The translations under genes were made by a program, and so were the position numbers. The notes beneath the pieces were generated by a model, which was not told the DNA's origin, made no database searches, and saw only the letters and a list, made by a program, of their open reading frames with translations. From the NCBI GenBank assembly GCA_034661075.1, contig JAYEKP010000098.1, forward strand, positions 1 through 59,984: DNA of 59,984 nucleotides, written 5' to 3'. Of the stretch, positions 8,200-38,936 are shown piece by piece (within the stretch, counting starts at the first letter, position 1; each line of letters opens with the position of its first letter). Source of the DNA: Bacteroidota bacterium (GTDB lineage: Bacteria > Bacteroidota > Bacteroidia > Bacteroidales > UBA12077).

Positions 8200-9714
8200 A
8201 TGAAAATACTTAAATCAGATCAAATACGCGAAGTTGACGCTTTTACGATAAAAAATGAACCGGTAGCATCTATTGATTTAATGGAACGTGCGGCCATGAC
8301 CATTACCCGGAAAGTTGCTGATTATTATGCACCCGAAACAATTGTAAAGTTGTTTATTGGCCCGGGAAATAATGGAGGCGATGGATTGGCTGTTGCTCGC
8401 CAATTGGTAGAATTTGGATTTTTACCCGAAGTTTATTTGCTTAAAATAACGGACAAGCTTTCACCCAATGCTGAAATTAATCTGGAACGATTAAAAAAAA
8501 TCAATAAAGTAAAGATTTCTGAAATAACGAATGAAAATGTTTTTCCCAAATTGCAACGTAATGATTTATTGATTGATGCGTTGTTCGGTTCCGGGTTATC
8601 AAGAAAACTTGAAGGGTTACCTGCAGGTTTAGTAAAACATATGAATCAATCGGCTGCCGATATTGTATCTATTGATATCCCTTCCGGATTGTTTGGCGAA
8701 GATAATGGAACAAACGACAGCGATTTAATAATTAAGGCAAAATATACTTTTACTTTTCAGATGCCAAAACTATCGTTCTTTTTTCCTGAAAATGAAAATT
8801 TTGTTGGATATTGGGAAGTAATGGACATTGGATTAATGCAGAAAGCGATAGATAAAATGAAGTCCGGTTATTTTATGCTTACTCCGGAGGATATAGCTTC
8901 TAAAATTGTACAGCGCAAAAAATTTTCTCATAAAGGAACTTATGGACATGCGTTGCTTATCTCCGGAAGTTATGGAAAAGTAGGAGCCGCTGTTTTATCG
9001 GCAAAAGCTTGCTTACGAACTGGTTGTGGTTTGGTAACGGTACATGTTCCTAAAGTGGGCTATGAAATTGTACAAACAGCACTCCCCGAAGCAATGATTA
9101 GTATTGACTGGTCGGATATCATTTTTACTGATGTACCGAATATTGAGAATTTTTCGTGTGTAGGAATTGGCCCTGGAATTGGGACAAAGCAAAATACCAA
9201 AAGAGCATTACTGAATCTTTTTGAAAAAGTGAAAAATCCGATTGTTATCGATGCTGATGCGCTGAATATTTTAGGTGAACATAAAGAATGGATACAGAAA
9301 ATTCCTGCAAATAGTATCTTAACGCCGCACCCAAAGGAGTTTGAACGCTTAGTTGGAAAATGTGCCGATGATTATGAAAGAAATCAACTACAAATAAAAT
9401 TTGCTGTAGAAAATAAAATTATTTTGATACTAAAAGGTGCTTATACATCTATTGCTTTGCCTGACGGAAATTGCTATTTTAATAGTACCGGAAATCCGGG
9501 AATGGCAACTGCTGGAAGCGGCGATGTACTAACAGGGATGATTCTTTCGTTATTTGGACAAGGCTACCATCCTGCTGATGCTGCAAAAATTGGTGTATAT
9601 TTGCATGGCCTGGCCGGAGATTTGGCTTCAGAAAAACTAGGAGAAGAAGCAATGATTGCTTCTGATATTATTGAAAATATTGGGAATGCATATTTAAAAT
9701 TTAAAAGGAAATGA
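8200..9714 (+). CDS. nnr: Bifunctional NAD(P)H-hydrate epimerase/dehydratase
   Basis: LMERAA, GPGNNGGDG, IDALFGSG, DIPSG; HKGTYG, IDADALN, TPHPKEF, GSGDVL. Confidence 0.95.
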   Translation: MKILKSDQIREVDAFTIKNEPVASIDLMERAAMTITRKVADYYAPETIVKLFIGPGNNGGDGLAVARQLVEFGFLPEVYLLKITDKLSPNAEINLERLKKINKVKISEITNENVFPKLQRNDLLIDALFGSGLSRKLEGLPAGLVKHMNQSAADIVSIDIPSGLFGEDNGTNDSDLIIKAKYTFTFQMPKLSFFFPENENFVGYWEVMDIGLMQKAIDKMKSGYFMLTPEDIASKIVQRKKFSHKGTYGHALLISGSYGKVGAAVLSAKACLRTGCGLVTVHVPKVGYEIVQTALPEAMISIDWSDIIFTDVPNIENFSCVGIGPGIGTKQNTKRALLNLFEKVKNPIVIDADALNILGEHKEWIQKIPANSILTPHPKEFERLVGKCADDYERNQLQIKFAVENKIILILKGAYTSIALPDGNCYFNSTGNPGMATAGSGDVLTGMILSLFGQGYHPADAAKIGVYLHGLAGDLASEKLGEEAMIASDIIENIGNAYLKFKRK

Positions 9715-17476: not shown

Positions 17477-17842
17477 TTTAGCTGACGGTTTTTGAAAAAA
17501 ATCATTGGGTTAGCAGATACATAGGGGTGAAGACGAAGTAAAAACTAAAAACTAAAAAGCTTATTGGATTTACATACATAATTTTAAAAAATACTGTAGT
17601 TGATAAATATGGTAATGGTATCCGTCCAGCCGTTTCAATCGGCCAGACGGATTGGTAACAACAGTACAGCAGACATTCCTGTCTGCTGAAAAAATGAAAC
17701 AGTCTTGTCTGCCGAAAGAATACGACAACCCAGCGCACAAGAATGTGCGCTGTACTGTACTTTTTGGTAAACCGAAGGGTTAATCCCTCGGTTATAAACA
17801 ATACCTCCTATAAAAAAAATGCCACTGTTGAAAAGTTTTGGT
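17477..17842. repeat. Composite REP-like hairpin cassette, copy A
   Basis: Hairpins at 17620-17652, 17667-17688, 17731-17752 and 17770-17793; homologous to 27650-28128. Confidence 0.85.
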
Positions 17843-18063
17843 TGAATATACACTCAATCGGTATTATGTATTTGATCTTTTAACGCTGATGTTTATCAAT
17901 ACTTTTGCTGCATTTATCAAAAAAAAGAAAACCCTTTTTATTTACGTACGTTAAATAAATTTAGGTAAAAGGGGAAAGAGTATTTGTAAAAAAACAAACA
18001 AAATAGATTAAATTTAACCGATTGTTTTGGATTGCTGGCAGTTGCTATTTAAAAAAATTTTAT

Positions 18064-18071
18064 TACTTTTG
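18064..18071 (+). promoter_or_regulatory. Candidate -7 promoter box of the giant surface-protein gene
   Basis: TACTTTTG about 65 nt upstream of the ATG. Confidence 0.45.
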
Positions 18072-18134
18072 GTTTTTAAATTACATTGGGAAATTTTTGA
18101 TTCAATTAGCTAATTATTAACCTTATAATATTAG

Positions 18135-21100
18135 ATGTTTAAAAATTATTATCATATGATTAAATTAAGGAGATTTTTATTTTTAGTATTATTCATTGGA
18201 ATTTCCTTAAATACTTTTGCTCAGACTGTAATTTTATCTGAAGATTTTAATGGAAGTTTCCCTGCAGGATGGTCCAATATTGTCATTGATGGTCCTCCAA
18301 GATTCCCGGGCTGGGAATGGACTGATGTTGGTGGAAATCATGGAGGACAGCTCAATTCTACTACATCAGCCAACGGTTATATGATCTTGGATTCTGATCA
18401 GTATGGTATAGTGGGAGTAGGAGTAAACGAGGATGCTGAATTAATATCACCTTCATTTGACTGTAGCGATAAGGATATTATTAATTTTTCTGTTGAGCAT
18501 TGGGCCCGTTCTTATGGTAACGCTAATATTACAATATCTGTTAGCTCAGATAATTTTACAACAGAGGATATAATTTATAATTGGAGTGGTGGAATCGATG
18601 AAACTAATGGGGCGAATCCTGTTGTCTCAAATTTTGATATTTCAGCTTATGCAGCAAGAGAAAGTAATGTGAAAATAAAATTTAAATGGCAGGGTTCCTG
18701 GGATTATTGGTGGTTAGTTGATGATGTTCAGATTACCGGCCTAGAAGCACCCATTGGTAATACAACCGATTTGGTTTACTGGCTCCGCGGCGATTTAGGT
18801 GTAACTGGTGCTACCCCAATAACAAATTGGGCAGACCAATCATTAAATGGCAACGATGCGACGCCTGGTGGTACAGGACCCGACCAGATTGTTTCCCCTG
18901 ATATGAATAACCAGGAAGTAATGTCTTTCGATGGTAATCGTGAATTAAATATTGCCGATGATCCCAGGATAAATACAGGAACCGGGTACGATGGAACAGA
19001 AAGGACTATGTTTGTTGCATTTCAAACAGGAGCAGATGTAACTTCTACCCAATATATTTATGAACAGGGAGAAAATGTAAATGGAATTGGTGTTTATATA
19101 AAGAATGGAAATTTATATGTTACGGCTTATAATAATGACGCCGCAGATCGAGTTACGGTCTATGAATCTGTTAGTACCAACACTCCATATATTTTGTCGT
19201 TTAACTGGAATAACGGGGCGCTTTCTGCAAAATTAAATAATGTCAACTTTACTAATCAGTCTTCGACAGGAAATATAAATTCTATTAATAGTCACTTAGG
19301 GGATATATCCATAGGTTTTACTGATGGTACTACAAGAGATGAGACAGGAACAAGTGTTGGTGGAGGATTAAACTTTTCAGGAAAGATCGCAGAATTAATT
19401 TATTATGATGCAGCACTAACCGAAGTGGACGAAGTAGAAATTAATAATTACTTAGGCGACAGGTATGGGGTAGATGTTAGTGTAGACTACGACTACGATA
19501 TTTACTATTCCTATCAAACAGGCGACTGGGATGATCCCGATACCTGGACCTTTGATCTGGGAGGTACTACATTAACACCCACTGATATTCCGAATAAGAA
19601 CGATAAAGTAGTAATTTTAAATGACAGAACCGTTACCCTGACTACTGATGTAGATACTGCCGGGTTGGATATTACGGTGAAAGAAGGAGCTGTCCTGGAT
19701 TTAGCAAGCTACACCTTTACTAATGGTATAGCTACCCTTCAGGGGCAAGGTACTTTTAAGCTCGCTTCGGTTAATTATCCGTCTGTAACATCCAATTTGT
19801 TTGTGCTTGCCGGAGGAGGAACCACCGAATATTACAATGCTGCTAATTTTACTTTACCTCCTGCGCAAACCGAATACAACCATTTGCGGATTAATACCCC
19901 CGGCCCCGGCTTTACCGCAACCCAATTAAATAATATTACGCTTAATGGCGATTTACATGTGAAACAGGGCACATACCAAATTAATGATAACTCAGCAGCC
20001 TGCCGACAATTAACCATTCATGGGGATGTATTGGTGGATAATGGCGCAAGTATTACTACTGGTACTGGAAATACAGTTAGTGGTATCGAAGATGGAGGAA
20101 CAGCACCGTTCACAAATTACTACGACTTAAACTCACACAGGGTAGTTGTTTATGGTGATTTTACCAACAACGGAACCGTCCGGTTTACCAATCAAAGTTA
20201 TCCGGTATACAATGCCTTCCCAACTGATGGTATGGCAACGGTGTATTTTATGGGAGCAACTAACAATACCCTACACTGTAATGGTACCACCGATTTCTAC
20301 AACCTGGTGTTGGATAAAGGGATTGACCAGACCTATAAACTGTCCTTATATTCAACGGCTTACCAGAATTTCAGGCTTTTTGGACGGAACGATATTGGAG
20401 GTGAAAATGGCGGAGCAAATCCTGATTTACGAAAAGCTTTGTGGATTCGTACCGGTACATTGGAGCTTAAAGGAATGACCATTATTCCTTCATTAACTGA
20501 AGCCAACACAGGAGGATCACCCAATGGAGATTTTTACGTACCTGCTAATGCAGCTCTTCACATCAGTGGCAGCGAGGTAATTGTTTTATCTACAGCTGAC
20601 GATTATCGCGAAGTTAATCTGGCTTATGGGGTATCTGCAACATCCAACGATCAAATTGGAGTTCGTACATCAGGTGGTACACAGTCATTCTCTATATATG
20701 GAAAATTGCAGATTGATAATGGGGTTTTCTCCACTAGAGAATCAGGCGGTATTATCACCTGGGATGTTTCGTCAGGGGTATTAGTTATTAACGGCGGTAT
20801 TGTGGATGTAAAACAATACCGTTCGGCAGGAACCTCAGGTGGATTAGCTTCTTATACTCAAAGTGGTGGTACATTCCTTTTACGTGGCCGCTTTCAGCGT
20901 ACCCCGACCGCTTATTCATCTATTGCCAACCTAAAGGATTTTTCTACCGCAACGTTAAATACTACAAGAGAAACAGGAGGATTACAAGGTAATCTGGGAA
21001 CGTTTAACATTAATGAAGCCCCTAACGTATTCAGTATGTCTGGAGGAACCATACGTATTTATGATGTTTGTGGTACCGGAGAGAGTGAAGCCTTTCAGGT

Positions 21101-24100
21101 CTTTTCCGACGAAAACAATAATAGTGTAACCGGAGGAACCCTTGAAATTGTACCTACAGCAGGTACCACCGGTACAGATGCTACAGAATTTAGGATAGAA
21201 ACGACTGCAGACCTTTATAATCTTTCTATAAACCGCGCAAGCAGTACTGCTTCTGTAGATGTGAATCTGTATGATTTAACGGTAATTAATGACTTAACCA
21301 TTACTTCCGGAGAATTCGTGGCTAATGATTATGATATAACCATTGGTGGTGATTTTATCGTGGAAAACGGAACCACTTATACTCCTGGAAATAACTGGAC
21401 CATATTTAATGGAACGGGAACACAAAGTTTTGAAATAAATACAGGATCAGCCTTGGATTTGTATAAGTTTATGCTCGATAAACCTTCTGGTTATGTTTTA
21501 ACCATAGCCGGAACACAAAATGTACTGAATGTGGTCGACTCGCTGATGATTCAAAAGGGAACGCTGGCGGATGGCGGAAAAACCATTTATATGAACGGTA
21601 GTTTGTTGTATAATTCAGGAGTGCATGAAGGTACCGGTAAAATTGTGATGAATGCAACGAGCCCACAAATCATTACAGGAGATGGTAACGGCGTTTTTGA
21701 AAATATTGAGTTGAATAATACCGATGGCAGTGCAGCACCTGTTTCTTTAGGAGCAAATACAACCATCAATGGTACACTTACTTTTTCGCAGGATAATTTA
21801 TTTGACATTTCTACCTACAGATTAACCTTTGGAGCAGATGCAACGGTAGTAAATGCCGGAACCAATCGATTTATTCAAACGGCCGGAAATGCCGGAGATG
21901 GAGGAGTTAGTAAGGTTTATTCCACTTCATCAACAAGTTTTACCTTTCCAGTGGGAGCTCCTTCTACTAGTCATGCGGCTGCTGCCGAATATTCCCCGGC
22001 TACTTTATCGTTTAGTACTAATCCAACAACATTTGGAACAATAACAGTGGTGCCGGTAGGATACGAACATCCCAATACAACTAATAAAAACAGAAGCTTA
22101 ACTTATTTCTGGCGAACCAAATCCGAAGGGTTTACATTAGGTTCAGCTGTTATAAATCATGCATATACTTATTCTGATAACGATGTTATTGATAATGGAA
22201 CAACTATTACAGAAGATGAATATGTTGCAGCCATGTATGATAATGCATCCTATACATGGACTAAGTATAATGTAACAGATGTGGAGGATGGTACGAATAC
22301 AATAGGAGGAACAGGAACATCTTTGGCATCACTTAATTACATTGATGGTGAATTTACTGCTGGTGATGATACACCGATCGCTGATGATCCTTTTGGAACA
22401 CCGGTAGTTTATTATAGTGTTGCAGATGGTTTCTGGGGTGATGCATCAACTTGGTCGAATACAAGTGGAGGAACACCTGGTGCAGGTGTACCCGGGCAAA
22501 ATGATGTTGTAATTATAGAAAACAATCATACTGTTGAATTAGAACATAATGGGGCTGATTATCCAATGAATTATGATGTTAGAAGTTGTGCAACATTGAA
22601 AATTGAGGAAGGTTCAGTGTTAGATATTAAAAGTAATACTGCCAGTACGTTTAGTACAGTTTTAAGTCATCCTAATGGTAATGGGTTATTTAGAGTTACC
22701 ACTGAAAAAGCTCCTGATAATTCAGAACCACAATTTTTTACTTTTCCTTCTGGAGATTTTTCAGATTTTAATTTGAATGGTGGAACAACCGAATACTATG
22801 ATATAGATGGAACAGTTGGAGCTCTTTATATTTTGCCACCCAATGTTACGCAATATGGAAACCTTATTCTTACTGCCAGAGGAGGCGCTAATTTGGTATT
22901 GCCAAATAATTCATATACGACAATAAATGGCGATTTTACATGTACTGGAAATCAAACTATAGCATGGATCGCTATGTCGTGGAATACAACTGTCGGGCCT
23001 TATTATACCGATGATTATGATCCTACACTGGAAAAAACAGTTCACATTAAGGGGGATATGTTAGTTGATGCAGGAAGCTTTGAGTTTTTTAATGATGAAG
23101 CAGTCCAACATTTAATCGTGGAAGGAGATCTTACTATTGCTGAAGGCGCTGTTTTGGAGACATATGGGGATTATCCATTTGCTACGCCTGTAGTTACCAA
23201 TACTATTAAAATTGGAGGGTCATTAACTAATAATGGTACTTTTAGATTAAGACGAAATGCCGAAGGAAGAACATATATAGTTAATGCAACTTTTTATGGG
23301 GGAAATACTTCAAGAATAACGAATACAGCCGGTACACCTACAACCATTTTTAATGATGTTACTGTTAATAAAGGTACATCACAAGCCGATTCCTTAATTG
23401 TTGATATTGAAGGGACCTTATCAACCCCAACAGATGCTTGGCTAACCCTTGAAAATGGAACATTTTATTACGAACATGACGGCGATTTAAGAATTACTGA
23501 AGACAGCCAATTTACCATTCCTGCAACAGCTGCTCTTTCAATCAACTCTCCGGGTAATACAGTATATCTGGCCAACGATAATGTAAATGATAACGATGTT
23601 TACCTAAACGGAAAACTAACCATTATTGACGGAGATGTTTTTATAGGTCAACCGGGTGCCCCAAGCAATAATAATGATATTGAGTATTCGGGTGGTGGAA
23701 ATTCTACCATTGATATTCAGGGCGGTAGTTTGACTGTGAATGGACAAATTAGGAGAAATCCATCTACATCAACAGGTATTTTAAAATATAATCAATCAGG
23801 TGGAGCTGTTACCATTAATGGGCGTAACACCATTACTGAAAATGCAAAACTCGAAATCTTAAATAATGGAAGTGAATTCAATATGTCCGGGGGTACACTC
23901 ACTATTGTGCGTGGAGGTGGAGGTGGAGGTGGAGGTGGAGGAGGAACCTTTGGTGATTTATACCTTCGTCCGGATAACTCAACCGTAACTGGAGGAGAGA
24001 TAATATTTAACCCCGGCGCTGCGGGTGCTCAAAATTTTATTTTTGATGCCGATATCCCCATTTGGGATTTAACAGTCAATACTGATGCAAATGTCGAATT

Positions 24101-27100
24101 ATTAGTGAGTCCGCTAACTATTAAAAACGACCTTACTATTGCAAGCGGAGGAACCCTGGATGCCAATATTAATTTTGATATACCGATAACCATTGAGGGT
24201 AATTTTGACAATTCAGGAATCTATGAGCATCGAAATAACTTAACTACATTTAGTGGAGGTACTCAACAGATTTTGGGAAGTGCTGCAATTGAATTCTATG
24301 ATTTAAAGGTTGATCCTGTAACAAGTTTGACCTTAGATCGTGATGCAAATGTTCAGAATAATTTGATGATTAGCAGGGGAACATTGGTTTGTGATGTGAA
24401 TTCAGTTTATGTTCAAGGTAATGTAACTAATAATTCAACTTATAGTGACAATAACGCAGGATTGATACTAAATGGTACTAAAAAACAGCAATTAATTTCT
24501 GGGACAGGTACTTTTGGCCGCTTGGAATTGAATAATTCACAAGGTGCCAGAATAGAAAATAATCTTTCTTTGCAAGATGATTTGATATTAACTAAAGGAA
24601 TTTTGGACATCAATAATAAACTTTTAACCTTAGGCCCTTCAAGCAACATCTTGGGTGCCCCTTTTGATGAAACTAAAATGATTATTTCCGATGGAGTATT
24701 TAGTGATATAGGTTTACGTAAGTACTTTAATATATATTCAGGTGCAAATCAGACTTTTACTTTCCCAATAGGTACTTCAGGGAAATATACTCCGGCAATT
24801 TTAACATATTCAGATATTGCCAATGTAGGTTATATTCGTATTAATAATATTAATGATAATCATCCTGGTGTTTTTGATGAATCAAATGTACTTGATTATT
24901 ATTGGGAGGTTGAAAGTGATGGAATAACAGGGTTTAATGGAAGTCTCTTATTTAACTATCTCGAAGAAGATATTGAGGTTACTGGCTCAAATACCGAAGC
25001 TGATTATATAGCTGCAGCATTATTACTACCAGGTACAAGTTGGTCAAAAGCTGCACCGGGTGCTGGTACCGATAGGGTTGATGAAAACAATAATACAATT
25101 ACTTTTAATTTTGCCGGAACAAATTCTTTGTCAGGCGAATTTACCGCTGGTATTGATAATGCATTACCCGATAATGTACCTGAGTTTACCAGTATTAATG
25201 ATGGCGATTGGTCTGATTCCGATAATTGGGTTCAAACAGGAGGGGATACATTTGAATTAACAGGAGCTCCCAACGGTTTTATTATAGTTATTGATTCTGA
25301 TGATGAAGTTTCTACAGATATTAATTACGCATCTGCTTATAGAATAACTATTAATGGAGAACTTAAAGTAAATAAGCCTACTTATGGACACAATCTTGGT
25401 ACGGTTTCAGGAACGGGAACCTTATATCTTGAAAGCGGAATGTTCCCTGCTGGCCGTTATACCGATTTTCTGGATTGTGCAAACAACGCTACCCTCAAAT
25501 ATGGAGGAACTGGAACCTATAATTTAATAGCGGATCTGTATTCTTCTGTTCCAAACTTACATTTTACAGGAACAGGGACAAGAATTTTACCTAATAAAGA
25601 CCTTACTATCTGCAACCAATTATTAATCGATGGGCCTACATTGGATAATAGTGCAAATAATAGAAAGTTAATTATTCAGGGAACCATGGAACGTTATAAT
25701 ACCGGCGCATTTAACAGTGGTACCGGAGCAAACGCTACGGTAAGTTTCGTAGGTTCTGCTGCTCAAACCATAGGTGGTACTCTGGGCGATTTTACAGGAA
25801 CCAATGCATTTAATAACCTGGAAATTAATAATAGTGCCGGCTTAACCGTAAATTCAGGAGGTGCCATTGAGGTGGGCGGTAATTTGTTATTAACCAACGG
25901 GAATATTGTTACTTCCTCAACCAATACATTTACCATTACAAATGATGCTATAAATTGTGTATTTCCTGCCGGAGGAAGTTTTTCTTCATACGTAGACGGG
26001 CCTTTAACCAAGTATATCCGACAGGGAGATGATTTTAAATTCCCCATTGGTAAAGGCGATACATTAGGCAATAAACTTACATTATCATCCATTCGTCTGG
26101 GTACCATTGCCTGGACAGCCGAATTTTTTACACCAAACCCAACCTATACTGATTTTGCAAGTCCGTTAACTTACGTAAATTCTAAGGAATATTGGACCAT
26201 AACAGCAAATGATGGAGATGAGGCTAAGGTGGGATTGGATTGGGATCCACAAAGTGATTTAACCCCGCTGATGACACAGAATGGTTTGAGTGATATGCGT
26301 GTTGTAGGTTTTAACACGGGAACAACACAATGGGAAGAAATATCCTCTACTCAAAGTGGAGATTATAATAATGGTACCGTAACTACATCAACTGAAATTA
26401 TTATTCCTGCGAGTGGATCAAGTGATTTTACAACCGCTTGTGTAAATGTTACCAAACCACGGGCAAGATTAAATCCTTCAGGAGCTGTTTGTGGCGACGA
26501 AGGCATTCCTGTTGCATTTACCGGTGTGGATGCAAGTGATTTGGATTATGTGTTAACTTATGAAAAAGGGGGTGTTTTACAGCCTTCTGTTACTATTACT
26601 TCAGCTGATTTGCCTTATATCTTGCCAACAGATGCCATTGGTACTACTTATGAGTTAATTAGTTTTACCTATAATGAGCCCGTTAGTCCTAAATCAGGGG
26701 TTGTTGATCCGGCAATAATTACAACATATACGGTTCCAACTACTGCTGATGCAGGCAATGATCAGTCGATTTGTGGGGGAACTTCAGCGGTTATGGATGG
26801 AAATACACCGGGTGTTGGTACAGGCCAGTGGAGTGTGGTAAGTGGTACCGGAGGATCATTTGTAGATCCAACCAACCCTACCACAACGTTTAACGGAACC
26901 AATGGTACGACTTATACCTTGCGATGGACGATTACCAATGGAGACTGTTTTTCTACAGATGATGTTGTAATAGCATTTCCATTGTTTCCCGAACAACCTG
27001 ATGATTTTACCACGAGTTCGGCAATTGTTTGCCAGGGAGATGAAGATGTAGAATATACCGTTCCTAATGATCCTTCGGTTACATATACCTGGGGTTATGA

Positions 27101-27599
27101 TGTTGGTACTGGAGCTACAATTGTTGGATCAGGAAATAGCGTTACGGTTGATTTTGCAAACAATGCTACAAGTGGAACATTATATGTATTTGCAACCAAT
27201 GGTTGTGGTGATAGCGATCGAAGAGAAATTGATGTAACTGTAAATGAGATGCCACAATTAACCATTACAGTTGACCCCCTTGTAGATACAATATGCGATG
27301 GAGAAACAACGCGTTTAGAAATTGACTTTACAGCTGGTTCAGGCACCTATGATTTTACAATTACTGATGGAACAAATAGTGAAGATTTATCTGGTATTAC
27401 CGATGATCCATATACTTATGAAAAGGCACTGAATTGGGTAGATGATGGGACTCCCGATACTGATTATAATTTTATCATTACAACTATTACCGATAGTAAT
27501 GGTTGTAGCAATACCAACCTGGGGAGCGAAGCTGTAAAAGTTTTTAAAATCCCGGGTTCTGGAGATGTTTACCATATTTCCAACGATTGGAATAATTAA
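18135..27599 (+). CDS. Giant secreted adhesin-like protein (3154 aa)
   Basis: Sec signal ending TFA-Q. N-terminal MAM/cleaved-adhesin-like jelly-roll (WQGSWDYWWLVDDV), LamG-like lectin domain (LVYWLRGD..WADQS..IAELIYY), three G8/beta-helix-like modules, C-terminal Ig/PKD-like repeats. No type A or B CTD. Domain names are by-eye inference. Confidence 0.85.
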   Translation: MFKNYYHMIKLRRFLFLVLFIGISLNTFAQTVILSEDFNGSFPAGWSNIVIDGPPRFPGWEWTDVGGNHGGQLNSTTSANGYMILDSDQYGIVGVGVNEDAELISPSFDCSDKDIINFSVEHWARSYGNANITISVSSDNFTTEDIIYNWSGGIDETNGANPVVSNFDISAYAARESNVKIKFKWQGSWDYWWLVDDVQITGLEAPIGNTTDLVYWLRGDLGVTGATPITNWADQSLNGNDATPGGTGPDQIVSPDMNNQEVMSFDGNRELNIADDPRINTGTGYDGTERTMFVAFQTGADVTSTQYIYEQGENVNGIGVYIKNGNLYVTAYNNDAADRVTVYESVSTNTPYILSFNWNNGALSAKLNNVNFTNQSSTGNINSINSHLGDISIGFTDGTTRDETGTSVGGGLNFSGKIAELIYYDAALTEVDEVEINNYLGDRYGVDVSVDYDYDIYYSYQTGDWDDPDTWTFDLGGTTLTPTDIPNKNDKVVILNDRTVTLTTDVDTAGLDITVKEGAVLDLASYTFTNGIATLQGQGTFKLASVNYPSVTSNLFVLAGGGTTEYYNAANFTLPPAQTEYNHLRINTPGPGFTATQLNNITLNGDLHVKQGTYQINDNSAACRQLTIHGDVLVDNGASITTGTGNTVSGIEDGGTAPFTNYYDLNSHRVVVYGDFTNNGTVRFTNQSYPVYNAFPTDGMATVYFMGATNNTLHCNGTTDFYNLVLDKGIDQTYKLSLYSTAYQNFRLFGRNDIGGENGGANPDLRKALWIRTGTLELKGMTIIPSLTEANTGGSPNGDFYVPANAALHISGSEVIVLSTADDYREVNLAYGVSATSNDQIGVRTSGGTQSFSIYGKLQIDNGVFSTRESGGIITWDVSSGVLVINGGIVDVKQYRSAGTSGGLASYTQSGGTFLLRGRFQRTPTAYSSIANLKDFSTATLNTTRETGGLQGNLGTFNINEAPNVFSMSGGTIRIYDVCGTGESEAFQVFSDENNNSVTGGTLEIVPTAGTTGTDATEFRIETTADLYNLSINRASSTASVDVNLYDLTVINDLTITSGEFVANDYDITIGGDFIVENGTTYTPGNNWTIFNGTGTQSFEINTGSALDLYKFMLDKPSGYVLTIAGTQNVLNVVDSLMIQKGTLADGGKTIYMNGSLLYNSGVHEGTGKIVMNATSPQIITGDGNGVFENIELNNTDGSAAPVSLGANTTINGTLTFSQDNLFDISTYRLTFGADATVVNAGTNRFIQTAGNAGDGGVSKVYSTSSTSFTFPVGAPSTSHAAAAEYSPATLSFSTNPTTFGTITVVPVGYEHPNTTNKNRSLTYFWRTKSEGFTLGSAVINHAYTYSDNDVIDNGTTITEDEYVAAMYDNASYTWTKYNVTDVEDGTNTIGGTGTSLASLNYIDGEFTAGDDTPIADDPFGTPVVYYSVADGFWGDASTWSNTSGGTPGAGVPGQNDVVIIENNHTVELEHNGADYPMNYDVRSCATLKIEEGSVLDIKSNTASTFSTVLSHPNGNGLFRVTTEKAPDNSEPQFFTFPSGDFSDFNLNGGTTEYYDIDGTVGALYILPPNVTQYGNLILTARGGANLVLPNNSYTTINGDFTCTGNQTIAWIAMSWNTTVGPYYTDDYDPTLEKTVHIKGDMLVDAGSFEFFNDEAVQHLIVEGDLTIAEGAVLETYGDYPFATPVVTNTIKIGGSLTNNGTFRLRRNAEGRTYIVNATFYGGNTSRITNTAGTPTTIFNDVTVNKGTSQADSLIVDIEGTLSTPTDAWLTLENGTFYYEHDGDLRITEDSQFTIPATAALSINSPGNTVYLANDNVNDNDVYLNGKLTIIDGDVFIGQPGAPSNNNDIEYSGGGNSTIDIQGGSLTVNGQIRRNPSTSTGILKYNQSGGAVTINGRNTITENAKLEILNNGSEFNMSGGTLTIVRGGGGGGGGGGGTFGDLYLRPDNSTVTGGEIIFNPGAAGAQNFIFDADIPIWDLTVNTDANVELLVSPLTIKNDLTIASGGTLDANINFDIPITIEGNFDNSGIYEHRNNLTTFSGGTQQILGSAAIEFYDLKVDPVTSLTLDRDANVQNNLMISRGTLVCDVNSVYVQGNVTNNSTYSDNNAGLILNGTKKQQLISGTGTFGRLELNNSQGARIENNLSLQDDLILTKGILDINNKLLTLGPSSNILGAPFDETKMIISDGVFSDIGLRKYFNIYSGANQTFTFPIGTSGKYTPAILTYSDIANVGYIRINNINDNHPGVFDESNVLDYYWEVESDGITGFNGSLLFNYLEEDIEVTGSNTEADYIAAALLLPGTSWSKAAPGAGTDRVDENNNTITFNFAGTNSLSGEFTAGIDNALPDNVPEFTSINDGDWSDSDNWVQTGGDTFELTGAPNGFIIVIDSDDEVSTDINYASAYRITINGELKVNKPTYGHNLGTVSGTGTLYLESGMFPAGRYTDFLDCANNATLKYGGTGTYNLIADLYSSVPNLHFTGTGTRILPNKDLTICNQLLIDGPTLDNSANNRKLIIQGTMERYNTGAFNSGTGANATVSFVGSAAQTIGGTLGDFTGTNAFNNLEINNSAGLTVNSGGAIEVGGNLLLTNGNIVTSSTNTFTITNDAINCVFPAGGSFSSYVDGPLTKYIRQGDDFKFPIGKGDTLGNKLTLSSIRLGTIAWTAEFFTPNPTYTDFASPLTYVNSKEYWTITANDGDEAKVGLDWDPQSDLTPLMTQNGLSDMRVVGFNTGTTQWEEISSTQSGDYNNGTVTTSTEIIIPASGSSDFTTACVNVTKPRARLNPSGAVCGDEGIPVAFTGVDASDLDYVLTYEKGGVLQPSVTITSADLPYILPTDAIGTTYELISFTYNEPVSPKSGVVDPAIITTYTVPTTADAGNDQSICGGTSAVMDGNTPGVGTGQWSVVSGTGGSFVDPTNPTTTFNGTNGTTYTLRWTITNGDCFSTDDVVIAFPLFPEQPDDFTTSSAIVCQGDEDVEYTVPNDPSVTYTWGYDVGTGATIVGSGNSVTVDFANNATSGTLYVFATNGCGDSDRREIDVTVNEMPQLTITVDPLVDTICDGETTRLEIDFTAGSGTYDFTITDGTNSEDLSGITDDPYTYEKALNWVDDGTPDTDYNFIITTITDSNGCSNTNLGSEAVKVFKIPGSGDVYHISNDWNN
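23913..23945 (+). repeat. (GGAGGT)n microsatellite encoding Gly11
   Basis: Four GGAGGT units plus GGA x3, in frame. Confidence 0.95.
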
Positions 27600-27649
27600 A
27601 AATATTTTTAGCAGGATAAATCTGCTAATCATAAAACGTTCTTTGAAAA

Positions 27650-28190
27650 GTACAGAAGACTTTTTTAACTACCTGTGGCAGTCCTGTCTGTTGAAAAAAT
27701 AAACAGCTTTAGCCGGTTTTTTTGGAAAAACTCATTGGGCTGGCAGAGAGACAAGGGTAAAAAAAGTGAGTAAATGCCGGAGACTGATGAATAAAATGAA
27801 AAAAAAATCCGGATTTATTAACAAACCTGGTTTTAAAAAAAATGCTACTGTTTAAAAAAAAAATTTTGGTAAGTCACGGTGTGAATTCCTGAATAAGGGT
27901 AGTTCATAGTTTTTTATAACTATAACTTGCAAAAGGCTCATTGTATCCGTCAAGCCGTTCTAATCGGCTAGACGGATTGTTAAAAGTACAGCAGACATTC
28001 TTGTCTGCTGAAAGAGTGAAGCATTTTTGTCTACTGTAATATACTCAGCGCACAGGACTGCCTAAACGGCAGTTAAAAATGTGCGCTGTACAGGCAGGGA
28101 TAAAAACACACGGGTTAACTCGTGTGTTATATTTGCGCCCCGTCCTGATCCCGATAGTTATCGGGATTATCGGGAGTTATCGGGATGGCG
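27650..28190. repeat. Composite REP-like hairpin cassette, copy B, with an extra partial unit and a palindrome array
   Basis: Hairpins at 27945-27977, 27989-28010, 28046-28088 and 28105-28128; partial unit at 27650-27693; atcccgatagttatcgggat with ttatcggga x3 at 28148-28186. Confidence 0.85.
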
Positions 28191-28566
28191 AGAAACAAAA
28201 AATGAGGGTATTGCCAGAAAATAAGAACGAGTTATCAAAAAAAAATACTATATTCGTCTATAGTAACTGTTTGTTAACGGAATATTTTTGGCATTTATCC
28301 TTTAAAATAATACATTTACACGTTTTTTTAATGGATTAATCAAAGGAAGGTTAAATAAAGAAACAAGATGTTTATAAAATCGTTAAATATATTTAGAAAA
28401 TTAACAAACTGTAAAATATTAAAAAATAATGCCTATGATGAAACATTAAAAATTAAATAAGTCCATAAAACAATGACTTAAATTACTATAATATATAAAT
28501 ATAATAACACATAAAAATTATTGAAAATTAAACATTTAATTAAATACAAACTTAAATTTTGAGATT

Positions 28567-29514
28567 ATGAAAAAAACAAACTTTTTTAAAATGGTAATGA
28601 CGCTTGTTATGGCGTTTATGGTTACAGGAGCTTTTGCTCAGGTGTACGAAGATGGTAATTACACTGAGAATCAGTTAGAAGATATTTACCAGACAGCTGG
28701 TTCTGATTTTGGTCTTTATGTCATACCAGATGCAAATTATAGTCCAGAATATACTACCAATGGAACAATTGGTGCAGGTGTAGAATGGACATGGACATTT
28801 GATGCTGGTCTTGGAACAGCATCAGTTACAAGTGGAACTGCTCAAAGTTCAAATTATGTGGAATTTACGAATCCTACAACTACTGGCTCACCTTATACTG
28901 TAGATGTTGAGGAATCAAACACAGCTGTTGCTTGTACTGGTGGTGGTATAAGTCAAAAAATAAATGTTATAGATGCTCCTTCAGCTCAAATTACAACATC
29001 TGATCCAGCTACAGCTTGTGGTAACCAAGCTGCTAATTCTGTAACAATTGAATTTACAGAAGATGTACCTTCTGCTCTTGCAGGTTATGCATTTGCTGTG
29101 ACAGAAACTGTTGATAATTTATCGGATCTAGGTGGTAGCCCTACCGTTAATAATGTATCAAGTACTGTAGATTTTGTTGACTATCCAACAACTAATAAAC
29201 TGAATACAATGAATGATTTGACAGGTGCAGCATCTCCTTATTCTTATTCTTTTAATACATCTGCTCTTGATTTGCAAAATAATAAGATTACTAGGTATAC
29301 TTACACTATTGTAAAAGCAACTGATGCACCAGTTGCTGCTGATGATGGTCTAATCTCTGCAATAAGTCAGAAATCAGAATATATTAGTAATGTTATTAAT
29401 GGTAATGTCTTAACTACATATTCTTTTGGAGCAAAAACAACTTATGTTGCGATTGTCGTTCCGACTCCTGAAACAGGACCAATTTATCATATACCTAATA
29501 ATTTTGCGTATTAA
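28567..29514 (+). CDS. Secreted two-Ig-domain-like protein; candidate major filament subunit
   Basis: Signal peptide ending AFA-Q; T/S/A/V-rich beta composition; ends PETGPIYHIPNNFAY, matching the giant protein's C-terminus. CDS is secure, role is inferred. Confidence 0.75.
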   Translation: MKKTNFFKMVMTLVMAFMVTGAFAQVYEDGNYTENQLEDIYQTAGSDFGLYVIPDANYSPEYTTNGTIGAGVEWTWTFDAGLGTASVTSGTAQSSNYVEFTNPTTTGSPYTVDVEESNTAVACTGGGISQKINVIDAPSAQITTSDPATACGNQAANSVTIEFTEDVPSALAGYAFAVTETVDNLSDLGGSPTVNNVSSTVDFVDYPTTNKLNTMNDLTGAASPYSYSFNTSALDLQNNKITRYTYTIVKATDAPVAADDGLISAISQKSEYISNVINGNVLTTYSFGAKTTYVAIVVPTPETGPIYHIPNNFAY

Positions 29515-29597: not shown

Positions 29598-29610
29598 AAA
29601 AAAAGCATAC

Positions 29611-29997
29611 ATGCAAAAAAATATTAAATATTGGATTGAATTGTCTGATTATGACATGGAAACGGCAGAAGCTATGCTCAATAGCAAAAGATTTCTGTAT
29701 GTGGGCTTTCTGTGCCACCAGACAATAGAAAAGATATTTAAAGCATATTATACGCATGTAAAATAAGAAACAGCGCCATTCTCTCATAGTTTATCCTACC
29801 TGGCAAAAAAGGGAGATTTTTACGATCTTTTTACCGAAAGCCAGAAGGATTTTATCGATCAGATTGAACCATTGAATATCGAAGCAAGGTATCCATCGCA
29901 TAATGAAAGGTTAATGCAAAGCCTTACCGAACAAAAATGCATGGAAATAATTAAGCATACAAAAGAGATTCAATCGTGGATAAAAACGAGGTTATAG
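29611..29997 (+). pseudogene. HEPN domain gene with an internal stop (missed by the ORF track)
   Basis: MQKNIKYWIELSDYDMETAEAML..YVGFLCHQTIEKIFKA..VK*ETAPFSHSL..NIEARYP..WIKTRL; TAA at 29764-29766. Confidence 0.88.
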
Positions 29998-30278
29998 AAA
30001 AAGTTAAAGCTTATAAAGCATTATTGAAAAATCATTTCAATATGCACTCGGTATATCTTTTTGGTTCGTATGCTAAAGATAACCACACAGAAGATAGTGA
30101 TATTGATGTGGCGGTTATTGTTGATCAGGTCGATGGCGATTTTTTTGCGATTAATCCTTTACTGTGGAAATTGAGAAGGCAAATTGATGATCGAATTGAA
30201 CCGATCATTATTGAAAAAAAATACGATGATGCAAATTTCCTGGATGAAGTTATTCGGACAGGCATTGAAATAAAATAA
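29976..30278 (+). CDS. Minimal nucleotidyltransferase (MNT), HEPN-MNT antitoxin
   Basis: YLFGSYAK..EDSDIDVAV motif; overlaps the HEPN 3' end; GTG start. Confidence 0.92.
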   Translation: MDKNEVIEKVKAYKALLKNHFNMHSVYLFGSYAKDNHTEDSDIDVAVIVDQVDGDFFAINPLLWKLRRQIDDRIEPIIIEKKYDDANFLDEVIRTGIEIK

Positions 30279-36192: not shown

Positions 36193-37537
36193 TTAAAAAG
36201 TTAGAATAAAGGTAGTGCCTTCATCTGGCTTAGAGTTAGCAGCAATAGAACCTCCATGCAACCGCATAATTTGTTTCGAAAGGCTTAGGCCAATACCGGA
36301 ACCTTTTGGTTTGGTAGTAAAGAAAGGAATAAATATTTTATCAAGCACCTCTTTTAAAATTCCCTGTCCATTATCGATAACCTGAATAGTTACCCGGTTT
36401 CGTTTATTTAAGAAACCTCGAACAATAATCTTTCCATTTTCCCGGTTTTCCATGGCATGGATTGCATTTTTAATAAGGTTAATCAATACCTGCTCAATAA
36501 GTTTTGTATCTGCATAAAATTCCAGGGATTCAGGCTCTACGGTCATTTCCAGCTTTATTGGCTTTTCACCAATTTCGTCAAGCATAAGCGGTTTTATATC
36601 ATCAAAGAGTTCTTTAACACCCGCAATCCTAAAATTAGGCTTAGGTATTTTAGTTAAGTTACGGTAAGTATTCACAAAATGCAATAATTCGTTACTTCGT
36701 TTATGGATGGTTTTTATGGCCATATGTACTTCTTCTATGGTTTCCATATCCGGAATGGATTTATTTCTCTCTGCATCTTTAAACATTAAATCCAGGGTAG
36801 ATGTGATGGATGATATGGGGGTAATTGAATTCATGATCTCGTGGGTTAACACACGGATTAATTTTTGCCAGCTTTCCGTCTCTTGATCTTCCAATACACT
36901 TTGTATGTTTTTAATAGTAACCAGCAGAATACTTTTATGGTGTATTTTAAATTCGGTTCCCGAAATGCTAAGCTGTAGAATATCATCTTCTTCCTGTACT
37001 TTTACCAGGCAGTTTTTCCCTGGTTCAAAATTTAATAGTGTATTTACCAACTCAGAGCTGATAGGAGTTAAATTTTTAATATTTTTGATGGTTGCAATTT
37101 GAAACAATTTTTTAAATGCATTATTTACCATATCTACCTTTCCGTCGCGCTGGTAGGTGATAATACTTACATCAATATTTTTAACTAAAACCTGTAAATA
37201 TTGGTACTGCTCTTCTTTTTCTGAACGTACTTTTTGGAAATCATGGATAACATCATTAAACGCTTTGTTTAACTCATCGAAAGATGAGCCGAGTCCTTCG
37301 ATTTTAAAAGAGCGTGTAAACTCTGAAAACCGAATGGATTCTAAAAATCCGGCCAGGTCGCGGTTGGTTTTATCAATATATTTAAATAGTAGATAGATTT
37401 GAAATATAATAATCAACCCCACTAAAAAAGGAGTAATAAAATATTCAAGGGTGATGGTATAGAAAAAAAAGAAATATTGTTGCTGTTAACAACAATATTC
37501 TGAATATAGTTACAAATCTAAAATTCCTAAAGACCAT
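36193..37537 (-). pseudogene. NtrY-like sensor histidine kinase with N-terminal frameshift
   Basis: RVLTHEIMNS H-box, QVLINLIKNA, DNGQG, FFTTK, GSGIGL. Natural start MVFRNFRF at 37537 is out of frame by one base at the A8 run 37463-37470. Confidence 0.8.
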
Positions 37538-38936
37538 ATTTTTCCATTCTTCGATATAATGATGTTCGCGTTAACCCAAGCATATTGGCAGCTTGAGATA
37601 CATTGCCTTGATTTTGTTTCAGCACTTTTTCAATCACTGTTTTTTCAATGTCGTCGAGATTATACGTGTCAAGTTCAAGTTCTCCAACTTTATCTTTTCT
37701 GGAGGAGAGAATAAAATCATCAGGTTGTAATGTGTCCGAATCACTCATGATAATAGCCCTTTCAATGGCATGTTGAAGTTCACGAACATTGCCTGGCCAT
37801 TGATATTGCGATAATTTTTTCATGGCTTCGGCGTTAATTCCTTTAATTTTTTTACGATATTTCTTAGAATATACTCCAATGAAATGTTCGGCTAATAAAG
37901 GAATATCTGTAACTCTTTCCCGTAAAGGCGGGAGATTTATTTCAACGGTATTGATACGATATAAAAGATCTTGCCTGAAAAATTCCTCATCAACCATTTG
38001 GTGTATATCGTTATTTGTGGCGCAAATAAGCCTAACATCTATGGGTTTCGATTTTGTAGCTCCTACGCGTGTTATCTCACGGCGTTCGAGTACAGTTAAT
38101 AATTTAGCTTGCATTGGTAAAGATAGGTTCCCAATTTCATCTAAGAATAAGGTGCCACCAGATGCAATCTCAAATCGGCCGGGTTTATCCTTCTTGGCAT
38201 CGGTAAAGGCTCCTTTAACATAACCAAATAATTCGCTTTCGAAAAGGGTTTCGGCAATTGATCCTAAATCTACATTAATAAATACTTCGTCTTTACGTAA
38301 TGAGTTACGATGAAGGGCACGTGCTACCAATTCTTTCCCTGTACCATTCTCACCTAATATTAATACATTGGCATCGGTTTTTGCTACTTTTTTTATGGTA
38401 GAAAAAACTTGTTGCATTTCGGGCGAATTACCAATAAATTCATGAAAAGGCTGGTCTTGAATAGCGCTAATTTCTTTTTGTTTTTTTCGTAAATCCGTAG
38501 CTTCGTTTTTTGAGCGGCGTAGTTTTATGGCCGATGAAATGGTGGCGAGTAATTTTTCATTTTGCCAGGGTTTTAAAATAAAGTCAGTAGCTCCTGATTT
38601 TATTGCTTTTACGGCTTTTTCGGCATCGCCATAAGCGGTAATAAATACTACAACTGCATCAGGATCAATCTCCATAATTTTCTCGAGCCAGTTAAAGCCT
38701 TCCTGCCCACTTATAGCATCCTGCGTAAAGTTCATGTCCAAAAGGATAACATCATACACATTTTCGTGCAACAATTCAGGAATAACGGAGGGATCTGTTT
38801 CAGTTTGGATTAGCTCAACATGATTTTTTAATAAAAGTTTAAGTGCAAATAAAATATCTTCATTATCATCAATAGCCAGTATTTTACCAATTTTTTTACT
38901 TTGAATTGCAAAGGTAAATATACAATATATTTTCAA
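37527..38936 (-). CDS. Sigma54-dependent (NtrC/AtoC-family) response regulator; start uncertain
   Basis: Receiver DD..LLDMNF, GENGTGKE, ESELFG..KGAFTDA, LFLDEIG, WPGNVREL and Fis-type HTH; no ATG at the expected start. Confidence 0.92.
   Translation of the reverse strand: MKIYCIFTFAIQSKKIGKILAIDDNEDILFALKLLLKNHVELIQTETDPSVIPELLHENVYDVILLDMNFTQDAISGQEGFNWLEKIMEIDPDAVVVFITAYGDAEKAVKAIKSGATDFILKPWQNEKLLATISSAIKLRRSKNEATDLRKKQKEISAIQDQPFHEFIGNSPEMQQVFSTIKKVAKTDANVLILGENGTGKELVARALHRNSLRKDEVFINVDLGSIAETLFESELFGYVKGAFTDAKKDKPGRFEIASGGTLFLDEIGNLSLPMQAKLLTVLERREITRVGATKSKPIDVRLICATNNDIHQMVDEEFFRQDLLYRINTVEINLPPLRERVTDIPLLAEHFIGVYSKKYRKKIKGINAEAMKKLSQYQWPGNVRELQHAIERAIIMSDSDTLQPDDFILSSRKDKVGELELDTYNLDDIEKTVIEKVLKQNQGNVSQAANMLGLTRTSLYRRMEKYGL

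Follow-up and report, generated by a model that had tools for sequence, protein, structure and literature searches.

In the sources cited here, substrates secreted by the type IX system (T9SS) are defined by a folded C-terminal domain (CTD) located on the same polypeptide (PMC12618676), and those with a type B CTD need cognate PorP/SprF shuttles, to which they remain anchored (PMC9143113; PMC12618676); SprF is tied to the gliding track by a Cys-x-Cys at its C-terminal tail (PMC12635249). In both SprB/SprF of Flavobacterium johnsoniae and PG1035/PorP of Porphyromonas gingivalis, the gene for the type B CTD protein directly precedes one of the PorP/SprF family. The same order is found in the gene cassette described here, which lies in a stretch of 59,984 nucleotides (nt) of contig JAYEKP010000098.1 (assembly GCA_034661075.1; Bacteroidota, Bacteroidales, UBA12077), hereafter called the window. 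Unlike in these two pairs, however, the CTD of the cassette is carried by a separate protein of ~340 amino acids (aa), whereas the giant protein has a 15-residue tail and no CTD, and a second tail-bearing protein, of ~310 aa, is always part of the cassette. In contrast to SprF, the PorP-like protein of the cassette has no Cys-x-Cys C-tail (it ends in ..ARRYRWLNRF), which makes a static anchor more likely. The tail is previously unnamed and the cassette is a new variation on the type B CTD/PorP system. We think it plausible, if somewhat short of probable, that the tail is a docking tag that joins CTD-less passengers to a CTD adaptor and a PorP anchor acting in trans.

The cassette also resembles the sprC-sprD-sprB-sprF operon of F. 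johnsoniae, in which accessory surface and motility proteins are grouped with a giant adhesin and its PorP/SprF partner (PMC12635249). This likeness is at the level of gene grouping; the small protein of the cassette matches no named family. SprC and SprD are not known to share a terminal tag. A further parallel is with the type V pili (FimA/Mfa) of the Bacteroidales, which are made of tip, stalk, and anchor, in which subunits bear C-terminal donor strands and lipoprotein pilins are matured by proteolysis. The cassette is found in the same order of bacteria and, as in these pili, a C-terminal extension is proposed to dock in a neighboring subunit.

A terminal tail shared by the proteins of two adjacent genes

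The giant protein (3154 aa) ends in KIPGSGDVYHISNDWNN and the small protein (315 aa) in PTPETGPIYHIPNNFAY, each directly followed by the stop codon (table 1). This common ending, P-x-[ST]-G-x-[VI]-Y-H-I-x-N followed by four residues, had been noticed in a preliminary description of the window, together with an identical span of 48 nt from proline codon to stop in both genes, and we verified the in-frame proline codons at 27552 and 29467. The genome was scanned in six frames (3.03 Mb in 247 contigs; 3,335 stop-to-stop open reading frames [ORFs] of at least 100 aa; 994,876 residues) with the pattern G.[IVL][YFW][HYF][IVL].N, which occurs six times in ORFs, twice at 2–6 residues before the end. 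Only 0.10 terminal occurrences are expected by chance in the whole genome, and the two observed belong to the giant and the small gene, which are adjacent; these are the only two ORFs of the genome with the terminal motif, and the small protein is present in a single copy. The signal peptides of both proteins end similarly, in ..TFAQ (..NTFAQ) for the giant and in ..AFAQ (..GAFAQ) for the small protein, with no cysteine at the cleavage site in either case and with an invariant Q25 in the latter.

Homologs of the small protein numbered 132 at E ≤ 0.001 in a word-index search, and a profile search of 1.84 billion representatives returned 494 clusters at E ≤ 0.001, of which 137 had E ≤ 1e-30; a length of 280–360 aa is found in nearly all of the best 150 of the 494 clusters. 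In an alignment of 50 family members (44% mean column identity), P301, T303, G304, P305, and N311 are invariant, and N298, P299, I306, Y307, and I309 are conserved in at least 90% of the sequences. The strict core [TP]G[PDN].[YFH][HY][IV].[ND] lies 1–5 residues before the end in 228 of 261 family proteins, exactly four residues following the asparagine in 206 of these 228 strict tails, which end most often in Y (111), then in L (41), F (26), and N (26). The other 33 proteins comprise 26 terminal variants differing by one residue, 6 fragments, and 1 protein with 10 residues past the motif. The motif is thus restricted to the C-terminus in homologs. Its consensus can be written as P-x-T-G-P-x-Y-[HY]-[IV]-x-N plus about four residues up to the C-terminus, and it is the best conserved segment among proteins that are otherwise 25–55% identical. 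The tail observation is confirmed and is stronger than first noted. As a working definition of the tail family we use [TP]-G-[PDN]-x-[YFH]-[HY]-[IV]-x-[ND] at 1–5 residues before the C-terminus, which both window proteins fit, in a Sec-exported carrier with a small/CTD/PorP cassette alongside or in the same genome. A word-index search with residues 272–315 of the small protein against proteins of 553–2000 aa gave nine candidates, none with E ≤ 10, a negative result that constitutes weak evidence.

The two carriers are also related upstream of the tail. The preliminary description had reported the patterns DP...C, [LV].I[DE]FT, and Y.F.[IV]T in both last domains; as written these do not stand, because insertions or deletions of one or two residues are needed, but the underlying homology does, as residues 72–190 of the small protein match residues 2982–3087 of the giant (BLASTP, E 0.003, 30% identity) and the small family matches giant C-termini with a probability of 97.6% (hhalign, E 2.7e-12). 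A search with the C-terminus of the giant was dominated by repeat-domain proteins and provided, besides the window protein itself, four orthologs, three with complete ends and one truncated. These orthologs, 82–90% identical to the giant across the last 454 aa, end in KIPETGPQYHISN[DE][YF]GN, and this ending (PETGPQYHISN....) is nearer to the small-protein consensus than that of the window giant.

The scan of one genome per species (GTDB), with ORF and phmmer annotation, yielded 61 related loci, hosted by Bacteroidales metagenome-assembled genomes (MAGs) in nearly all cases and by one cultured organism, Perlabentimonas gracilis M08_MB (locus L036). A small-gene ORF is present in 59 of them, with a strict tail in 58. 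A giant lies directly upstream of the small gene in 16 of the 38 loci with at least 3 kb of upstream sequence, and all 16 large ORFs ending at most 1.2 kb before the small gene bear the tail, in the form [KR]-x-P-[ED]-[TP]-G-P-x-[YFH]-[HY]-[IV]-x-[ND]. These giants resemble the small protein only in their last two domains, and nonetheless their tail is the same. At the DNA level, a strict tail pattern was present in 19 of 301 genomes from the order; forward and reverse matches together numbered 31, against 10 for a reversed control. The pattern search led to five further genomes with tail-bearing giants at loci unlinked to the cassette, some of them in tandem, with no CTD or PorP gene within 5–7 kb downstream; in each, one small/CTD/PorP cassette was found at another place. 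The presence of unlinked tail-bearing giants along with a single cassette is consistent with several passengers sharing one receptor.

Some peculiarities of tail carriers may be mentioned here. Within the window giant, a hexanucleotide repeat (GGTGGA)n at 23903–23950 encodes a run of 11 glycines and, being in frame, would not break the gene by changing its length. On the opposite strand in locus L038 (15790–20952, −), a tail-bearing protein of more than 1720 aa ends in ..RPAPGPVYYIPNDFGN, and in locus L047 a 208-aa tail carrier (8963–9589), located between the small and CTD genes, ends in ..PPETGNLYHIPNIFG. The giant is split into several ORFs in L033, L042, and L057, as are small or CTD-protein genes in L042 and L057; these are either decaying cassettes or assembly errors.

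A cassette with the look of a split type B adhesin

Neither tail-bearing protein carries a described CTD. With hmmscan (E ≤ 0.1), no CTD model of Pfam or NCBIfam matched the giant or the small protein; the small protein had no Pfam or NCBIfam family at all and the giant no NCBIfam family, while residues 2959–3037 of the giant matched PKD_6 (4.1e-09) and Ig_7 (1.2e-08) in Pfam. Type A (TIGR04183/PF18962) and type B (TIGR04131/PF13585 CHU_C) CTDs were thus rejected for both proteins, and the type B models detect the 336-aa neighbor (CHU_C 3.7e-24, TIGR04131 3.3e-18). In the ESM Atlas, the small protein fell only in unnamed or PKD-like clusters. We also rejected the C-terminal beta-signal of outer-membrane beta-barrels, because the AlphaFold2 models are immunoglobulin-like (Ig-like) sandwiches rather than barrels and the giant ends in ..WNN.

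Sec signal peptides are present on all four cassette proteins, and a T9SS signal only on the ~340-aa protein. The association with T9SS genes that the preliminary description had proposed to look for was found: wherever 1.5 kb or more of sequence downstream of the small gene is available (54 of 54 loci), it contains the CTD-protein gene in the same orientation, with a gap mostly below 120 bp, and of the 47 loci with 3.5 kb or more, 46 have a PorP/SprF gene. The genome of the window contains SprA (2754.6 bits), six PorP-family genes, and eight type B CTDs, three of which are found in the classical arrangement, on open frames of 1202–1658 aa with a PorP gene directly after. A CTD gene with an adjacent PorP/SprF gene in a genome containing SprA, as expected of a type B CTD system, is also what the cassette displays, and its PorP/SprF-family protein presumably shuttles and anchors the type B CTD.

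The first domain of the CTD protein is homologous to its counterpart in the small protein (hhalign 93.8%) and also to the penultimate domain of the giant, whose Pfam name is "Ig-like domain CHU_C associated". Residues ~106–336 of the CTD protein, which include domains 2 and 3 and the CTD, correspond in alignments to the extreme C-terminal end of type B adhesins made in one piece (2000–4800 aa); for instance, the one-piece adhesin P0207 is 33% identical to this part over 242 aa, up to the last residue of P0207. Because the CTD protein matches adhesin C-termini, and given the CTD/PorP pairs of the same genome, the cassette looks, judging from sequence comparison, like a classical type B adhesin split into a tail-ended passenger and a small CTD-bearing piece.

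These similarities suggest how the cassette might work. Its members would be at least one giant adhesin-like passenger, a ~310-aa passenger with two Ig-like domains, a ~340-aa CTD protein, and a PorP/SprF barrel. The flexible C-terminal tail of each passenger would bind the N-terminal PKD-like part of the CTD protein, and binding would rebuild non-covalently the passenger-Ig-Ig-CTD order of one-piece type B adhesins. The passengers would leave the cell via the T9SS and would then be held on the surface by the CTD/PorP anchor. In this scheme, we infer both the protein that receives the tail and piggy-back export. The more specific proposal of a trans T9SS adaptor, in which the 15-residue peptide docks CTD-less proteins, including exchangeable adhesins of 2500–3300 aa encoded anywhere in the genome, on the CTD protein held in a PorP barrel and so lets them be exported and displayed, is possible, and we hold it with less confidence.

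Predicted structures and partners

The AlphaFold2 model of the small protein, built from the family alignment, is of good overall quality (predicted local distance difference test [pLDDT] 87.8, predicted template modeling score 0.80). It consists of two Ig-like sandwiches with a last strand at residues 292–298, after which residues 299–315 form a coil (pLDDT 84 at 301–310 and 59 at 311–315). For the giant, the C-terminal 230 aa were modeled (pLDDT 84.4); the final strand stops at position 213 and the 17-residue tail is likewise a coil, with pLDDT decreasing from 68 to 47. Covariation was measured by MI-APC, the mutual information of pairs of alignment columns after removal of the background signal, on 280 small-family sequences (effective number 226). 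The tail core is uncoupled from the remaining protein (z < 2.3), and residue 298, in the last strand, is coupled to residue 241 (z 6.6). Because the tail is a coil that follows the last strand and its core shows no covariation, the models indicate that it is an appendage outside the domain core.

For the prediction of a complex we used residues 21–326 of PorP, 26–336 of the CTD protein, and 26–315 of the small protein, the last being the scored partner, with alignments of 46 rows. The score was 0.45 (0.45, 0.47, and 0.44 in individual runs), against 0.00 for the best of three controls; the runs share at least 94% of their contacts, with a pLDDT of at least 77 for the partner. A control in which PorP and the small protein were kept and the CTD protein was replaced scored 0.00, which suggests that the predicted contact is with the CTD protein and not with PorP. 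In the calibration of the tool, 58 of 80 solved complexes came up to the mark, as did 2 of 110 mismatched pairs. The prediction thus lends weak support to binding of the small protein to its partners.

Variable passengers over a conserved putative anchor

Between the window and the related loci L024 and L025, PorP is 93% identical and the CTD protein 82–83%, against 40–41% for the small protein, in which the tail is retained, and the PorP and small-protein trees disagree. Among four DNA runs, X4 and X5 give a comparable picture: the body of the small gene (28608–29271) is little covered at 90% likeness or above, whereas its flanks and the CTD and PorP genes are covered, and contigs from these runs diverge from the window at 28617 and 28643, just past the part of the small gene that encodes the signal peptide. 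Contigs from DNA runs also contained joints skipping the giant (17490 to 27700 and 17677 to 27669), which we rejected as unreliable, their sides being only 22 letters long.

The tail itself exists in two states, with His or Tyr at one position, and the small protein and the giant are in the same state in all 19 loci that have both (6 Tyr/Tyr, 13 His/His); the Tyr state corresponds to three changes on the small-protein tree. The column that best follows this change lies in the small protein itself, at residue 197, which is Leu in 7 of 7 Tyr-type loci versus 2 of 39 His-type loci, and this residue is not among the four strongest MI partners of residue 308 in the set of 280 sequences.

In the 967-bp spacer that separates the giant and small genes, a tandem repeat of about three copies of TTATCGGGA(G) is located at 28156–28186, ~400 bp before the small gene. 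A contig from run X3 lacks 10 nt at 28167, which indicates that the copy number of this repeat differs between strains, and it could be a regulatory or phase-variable element.

Arguments against docking and alternative explanations

Several points weigh against the docking proposal. The agreement of His/Tyr states comes down to only three independent contrasts, all concordant (p 0.25 by a sign test), and genes lying side by side are inherited together; moreover, in independent contrasts, no clearly discriminating column of the CTD protein or PorP tracks the change. At scores of 0.60 or less, the calibration mark was reached by just 7 of 80 solved complexes and by both mismatches, and the score of 0.45 is in the range in which the tool is more often wrong than right unless the complex is likely beforehand. 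As the prediction released no contacts, the place of the tail in the interface, and hence its being the binding element, is what we infer. The pLDDT of 84 at residues 301–310 is high for a free tail, and these residues may pack on their own domain. The tail is also proline-rich, with a strand-like core of just four residues, so that strand addition is not obvious. Finally, a 3154-aa passenger bound non-covalently would have to stay in its complex throughout translocation, and our literature searches, which covered titles and the beginnings of abstracts, found no precedent for piggy-back export through the T9SS; nor did they bring up a CTD adaptor acting in trans or a "YHIPN" motif. The interpretation given in the preliminary description, in which the tail is a candidate sorting signal, donor strand, or piggy-back export tag, is partly supported: the complex prediction weakly favors binding of the small protein to its partners, and a donor strand of the classical kind is doubtful in view of the many prolines in the tail and its prediction as coil rather than strand.

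This last point also bears on a scenario of fibre assembly, in which the tail, as a donor element, would enter the first, PKD-like domain of the following subunit; small proteins would polymerize into the stalk, the giant would be the tip, and the CTD protein a base held by PorP. Several features fit such a fibre. According to the hhalign comparisons above, one domain type recurs in the small protein, in the CTD protein, and in the giant, where it is the penultimate domain; acceptor-like domains are found without a tail in the CTD protein and together with a tail in the small protein; the small gene always adjoins the CTD gene; and the weak support for a complex hinged on the CTD protein. In addition to the composition and predicted coil of the tail, however, its core covaries with no position of the small protein, and Foldseek searches of the PDB with the small protein returned only generic tandem Ig folds (TM ≤ 0.33 by query) and no pilin fold. 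The signal peptides are not of the lipoprotein type, in contrast to those of type V pilins, and a type V pilin (FimA/Mfa) was itself rejected given the lack of a lipobox cysteine, the absence of any FimA/Mfa match in Pfam, the generic Ig fold, and the coil tail. We rate fibre assembly as unlikely.

A self-standing sorting signal seems to us rather unlikely as well. Here, a core envelope machine, be it the T9SS translocon or another outer-membrane pathway, would read the tail, perhaps together with the last Ig-like domain, and the CTD/PorP pair would be a separate unit. The extreme C-terminus is indeed the usual place of T9SS signals, both proteins are Sec-exported, resemble surface proteins, and lack a known CTD, and the unlinked giants are found at loci without a CTD/PorP pair. 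A signal read by the core machinery should however be commoner than what is found, with matches in 19 of the 301 genomes and, in the genome of the window, 2 carrier ORFs compared with 8 type B CTDs. The synteny with one family of CTD proteins is perfect (54 of 54), and known T9SS signals are folded domains of ~70–100 aa rather than 15-aa peptides (PMC12618676). It is because of the two carriers per genome and the perfect link to one adaptor family that we disfavor a self-standing signal.

The tail might also be a processing or ligation site, its P-x-T-G being cut, for example after the threonine, and the protein then joined to another protein or to a surface polymer, or simply trimmed. Its short C-terminal signature with a P-x-T-G core does recall sortase LPXTG and exosortase signals; the Thr, Gly, and Pro residues and the proline two positions before Thr are invariant, and the giants show [KR]-x-P-E-T-G-P. 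On the other hand, ~11 residues follow TG, PIYHIPNNFAY in the small protein and DVYHISNDWNN in the giant, and these contain neither a hydrophobic stretch nor a cluster of Arg/Lys. We rejected signals of the sortase LPXTG and exosortase/rhombosortase CTERM types on the grounds that no transmembrane helix or basic cluster comes after the motif and that no neighboring gene is sortase-like. Nor did neighbor clustering over the 61 loci reveal a recurrent peptidase or transpeptidase gene. Conservation furthermore extends past TG to Y, H, I, and N, which cleavage alone leaves unexplained, and we regard processing as improbable.

Equally improbable, despite the pLDDT reached by residues 301–310 in the monomer model, is a role of the tail in its own fold, as a latch or cap packed on the last domain for folding or stability and with no part in sorting or docking, since the last domains differ greatly (117 vs ~160 aa), are homologous at their start only, and yet have the same tail, no covariation links the tail core to the protein that bears it, the tail of the giant is modeled with low confidence, and near invariance across proteins 25% identical would be unusual for a surface latch.

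Features and neighbors of the cassette

The coordinates of the cassette and of recurrent neighboring genes are given in table 1. Neighbor clustering places the TPR protein 3–5.5 kb past the start of the small gene in the window and 14 related loci, and its membership of the cassette is uncertain. A sensor histidine kinase recurs near the cassette in the window and 10 related loci, and a sigma-54 response regulator in 5 loci including the window; these three genes may be parts of the cassette or regulators.

Table 1. Positions in the window of the cassette genes, their tails, and recurrent neighbors
Feature	Positions	Strand	Description
Giant CTD-less passenger, 3154 aa	18135..27599	+	Signal peptide, repeat-rich beta-structure, PKD_6/Ig_7, last Ig-like domain, tail
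Tail 1 (giant)	27552..27599	+	PGSGDVYHISNDWNN + stop codon
Small CTD-less passenger, 315 aa	28567..29514	+	Signal peptide, two Ig-like sandwich domains, tail
Tail 2 (small protein)	29467..29514	+	PETGPIYHIPNNFAY + stop codon
Type B CTD adaptor protein (proposed role), 336 aa	30304..31314	+	Signal peptide; three Cys-containing PKD-like domains; CTD 249–336
PorP/SprF-family outer-membrane protein, 326 aa	31351..32331	+	PorP_SprF 6.5e-74, TIGR03519 1.8e-78
TPR-repeat protein, 446 aa	33582..34922	+	Recurs just after PorP in 14 related loci
Sensor histidine kinase	36193..37422		
Sigma-54 response regulator	37527..38936		

In the window, a HEPN/MNT toxin-antitoxin module (29611–30278) is inserted between the small and CTD-protein genes. 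Its HEPN part is split into two ORFs, at 29611–29766 (profile positions 2–43) and 29872–29997 (positions 84–115), while the MNT gene (29976–30278) is intact. Contigs from run X5 join 29605 to 30268 and 29608 to 30277, which points to relatives devoid of this module. A family of proteins of ~290–345 aa, with no member in the window, flanks the cassette in 19 loci (L005, L006, L010, L011, L014, L021, and L038 among them), its genes being placed either directly before the small gene or past PorP, on the opposite strand. The cassette contigs of L025, L046, L047, and L029 belong to MAGs labeled Thiohalospira, Acidobacteriota, Trichloromonas, and Melioribacteraceae; most likely they were wrongly binned, gene transfer being less likely.

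Significance of the tail

If the docking proposal is true, cargo of the T9SS would be selected in a second manner, in trans, and the arrival at the surface of some very large Bacteroidales proteins without a recognizable CTD would be explained. In the more specific form of a trans adaptor, the cassette would be the first case of piggy-back export by this system. Adhesins would be exchangeable over a constant anchor, as is suggested by the comparison of relatives, in which PorP is 93% and the small passenger ~40% identical. The tail would then be a natural plug-in tag for swapping surface adhesins, and a tag of 15 residues might serve for surface display. Even if docking turns out to be wrong, the motif marks out a family of 494 clusters that has no name and whose terminal signature is sharply conserved.

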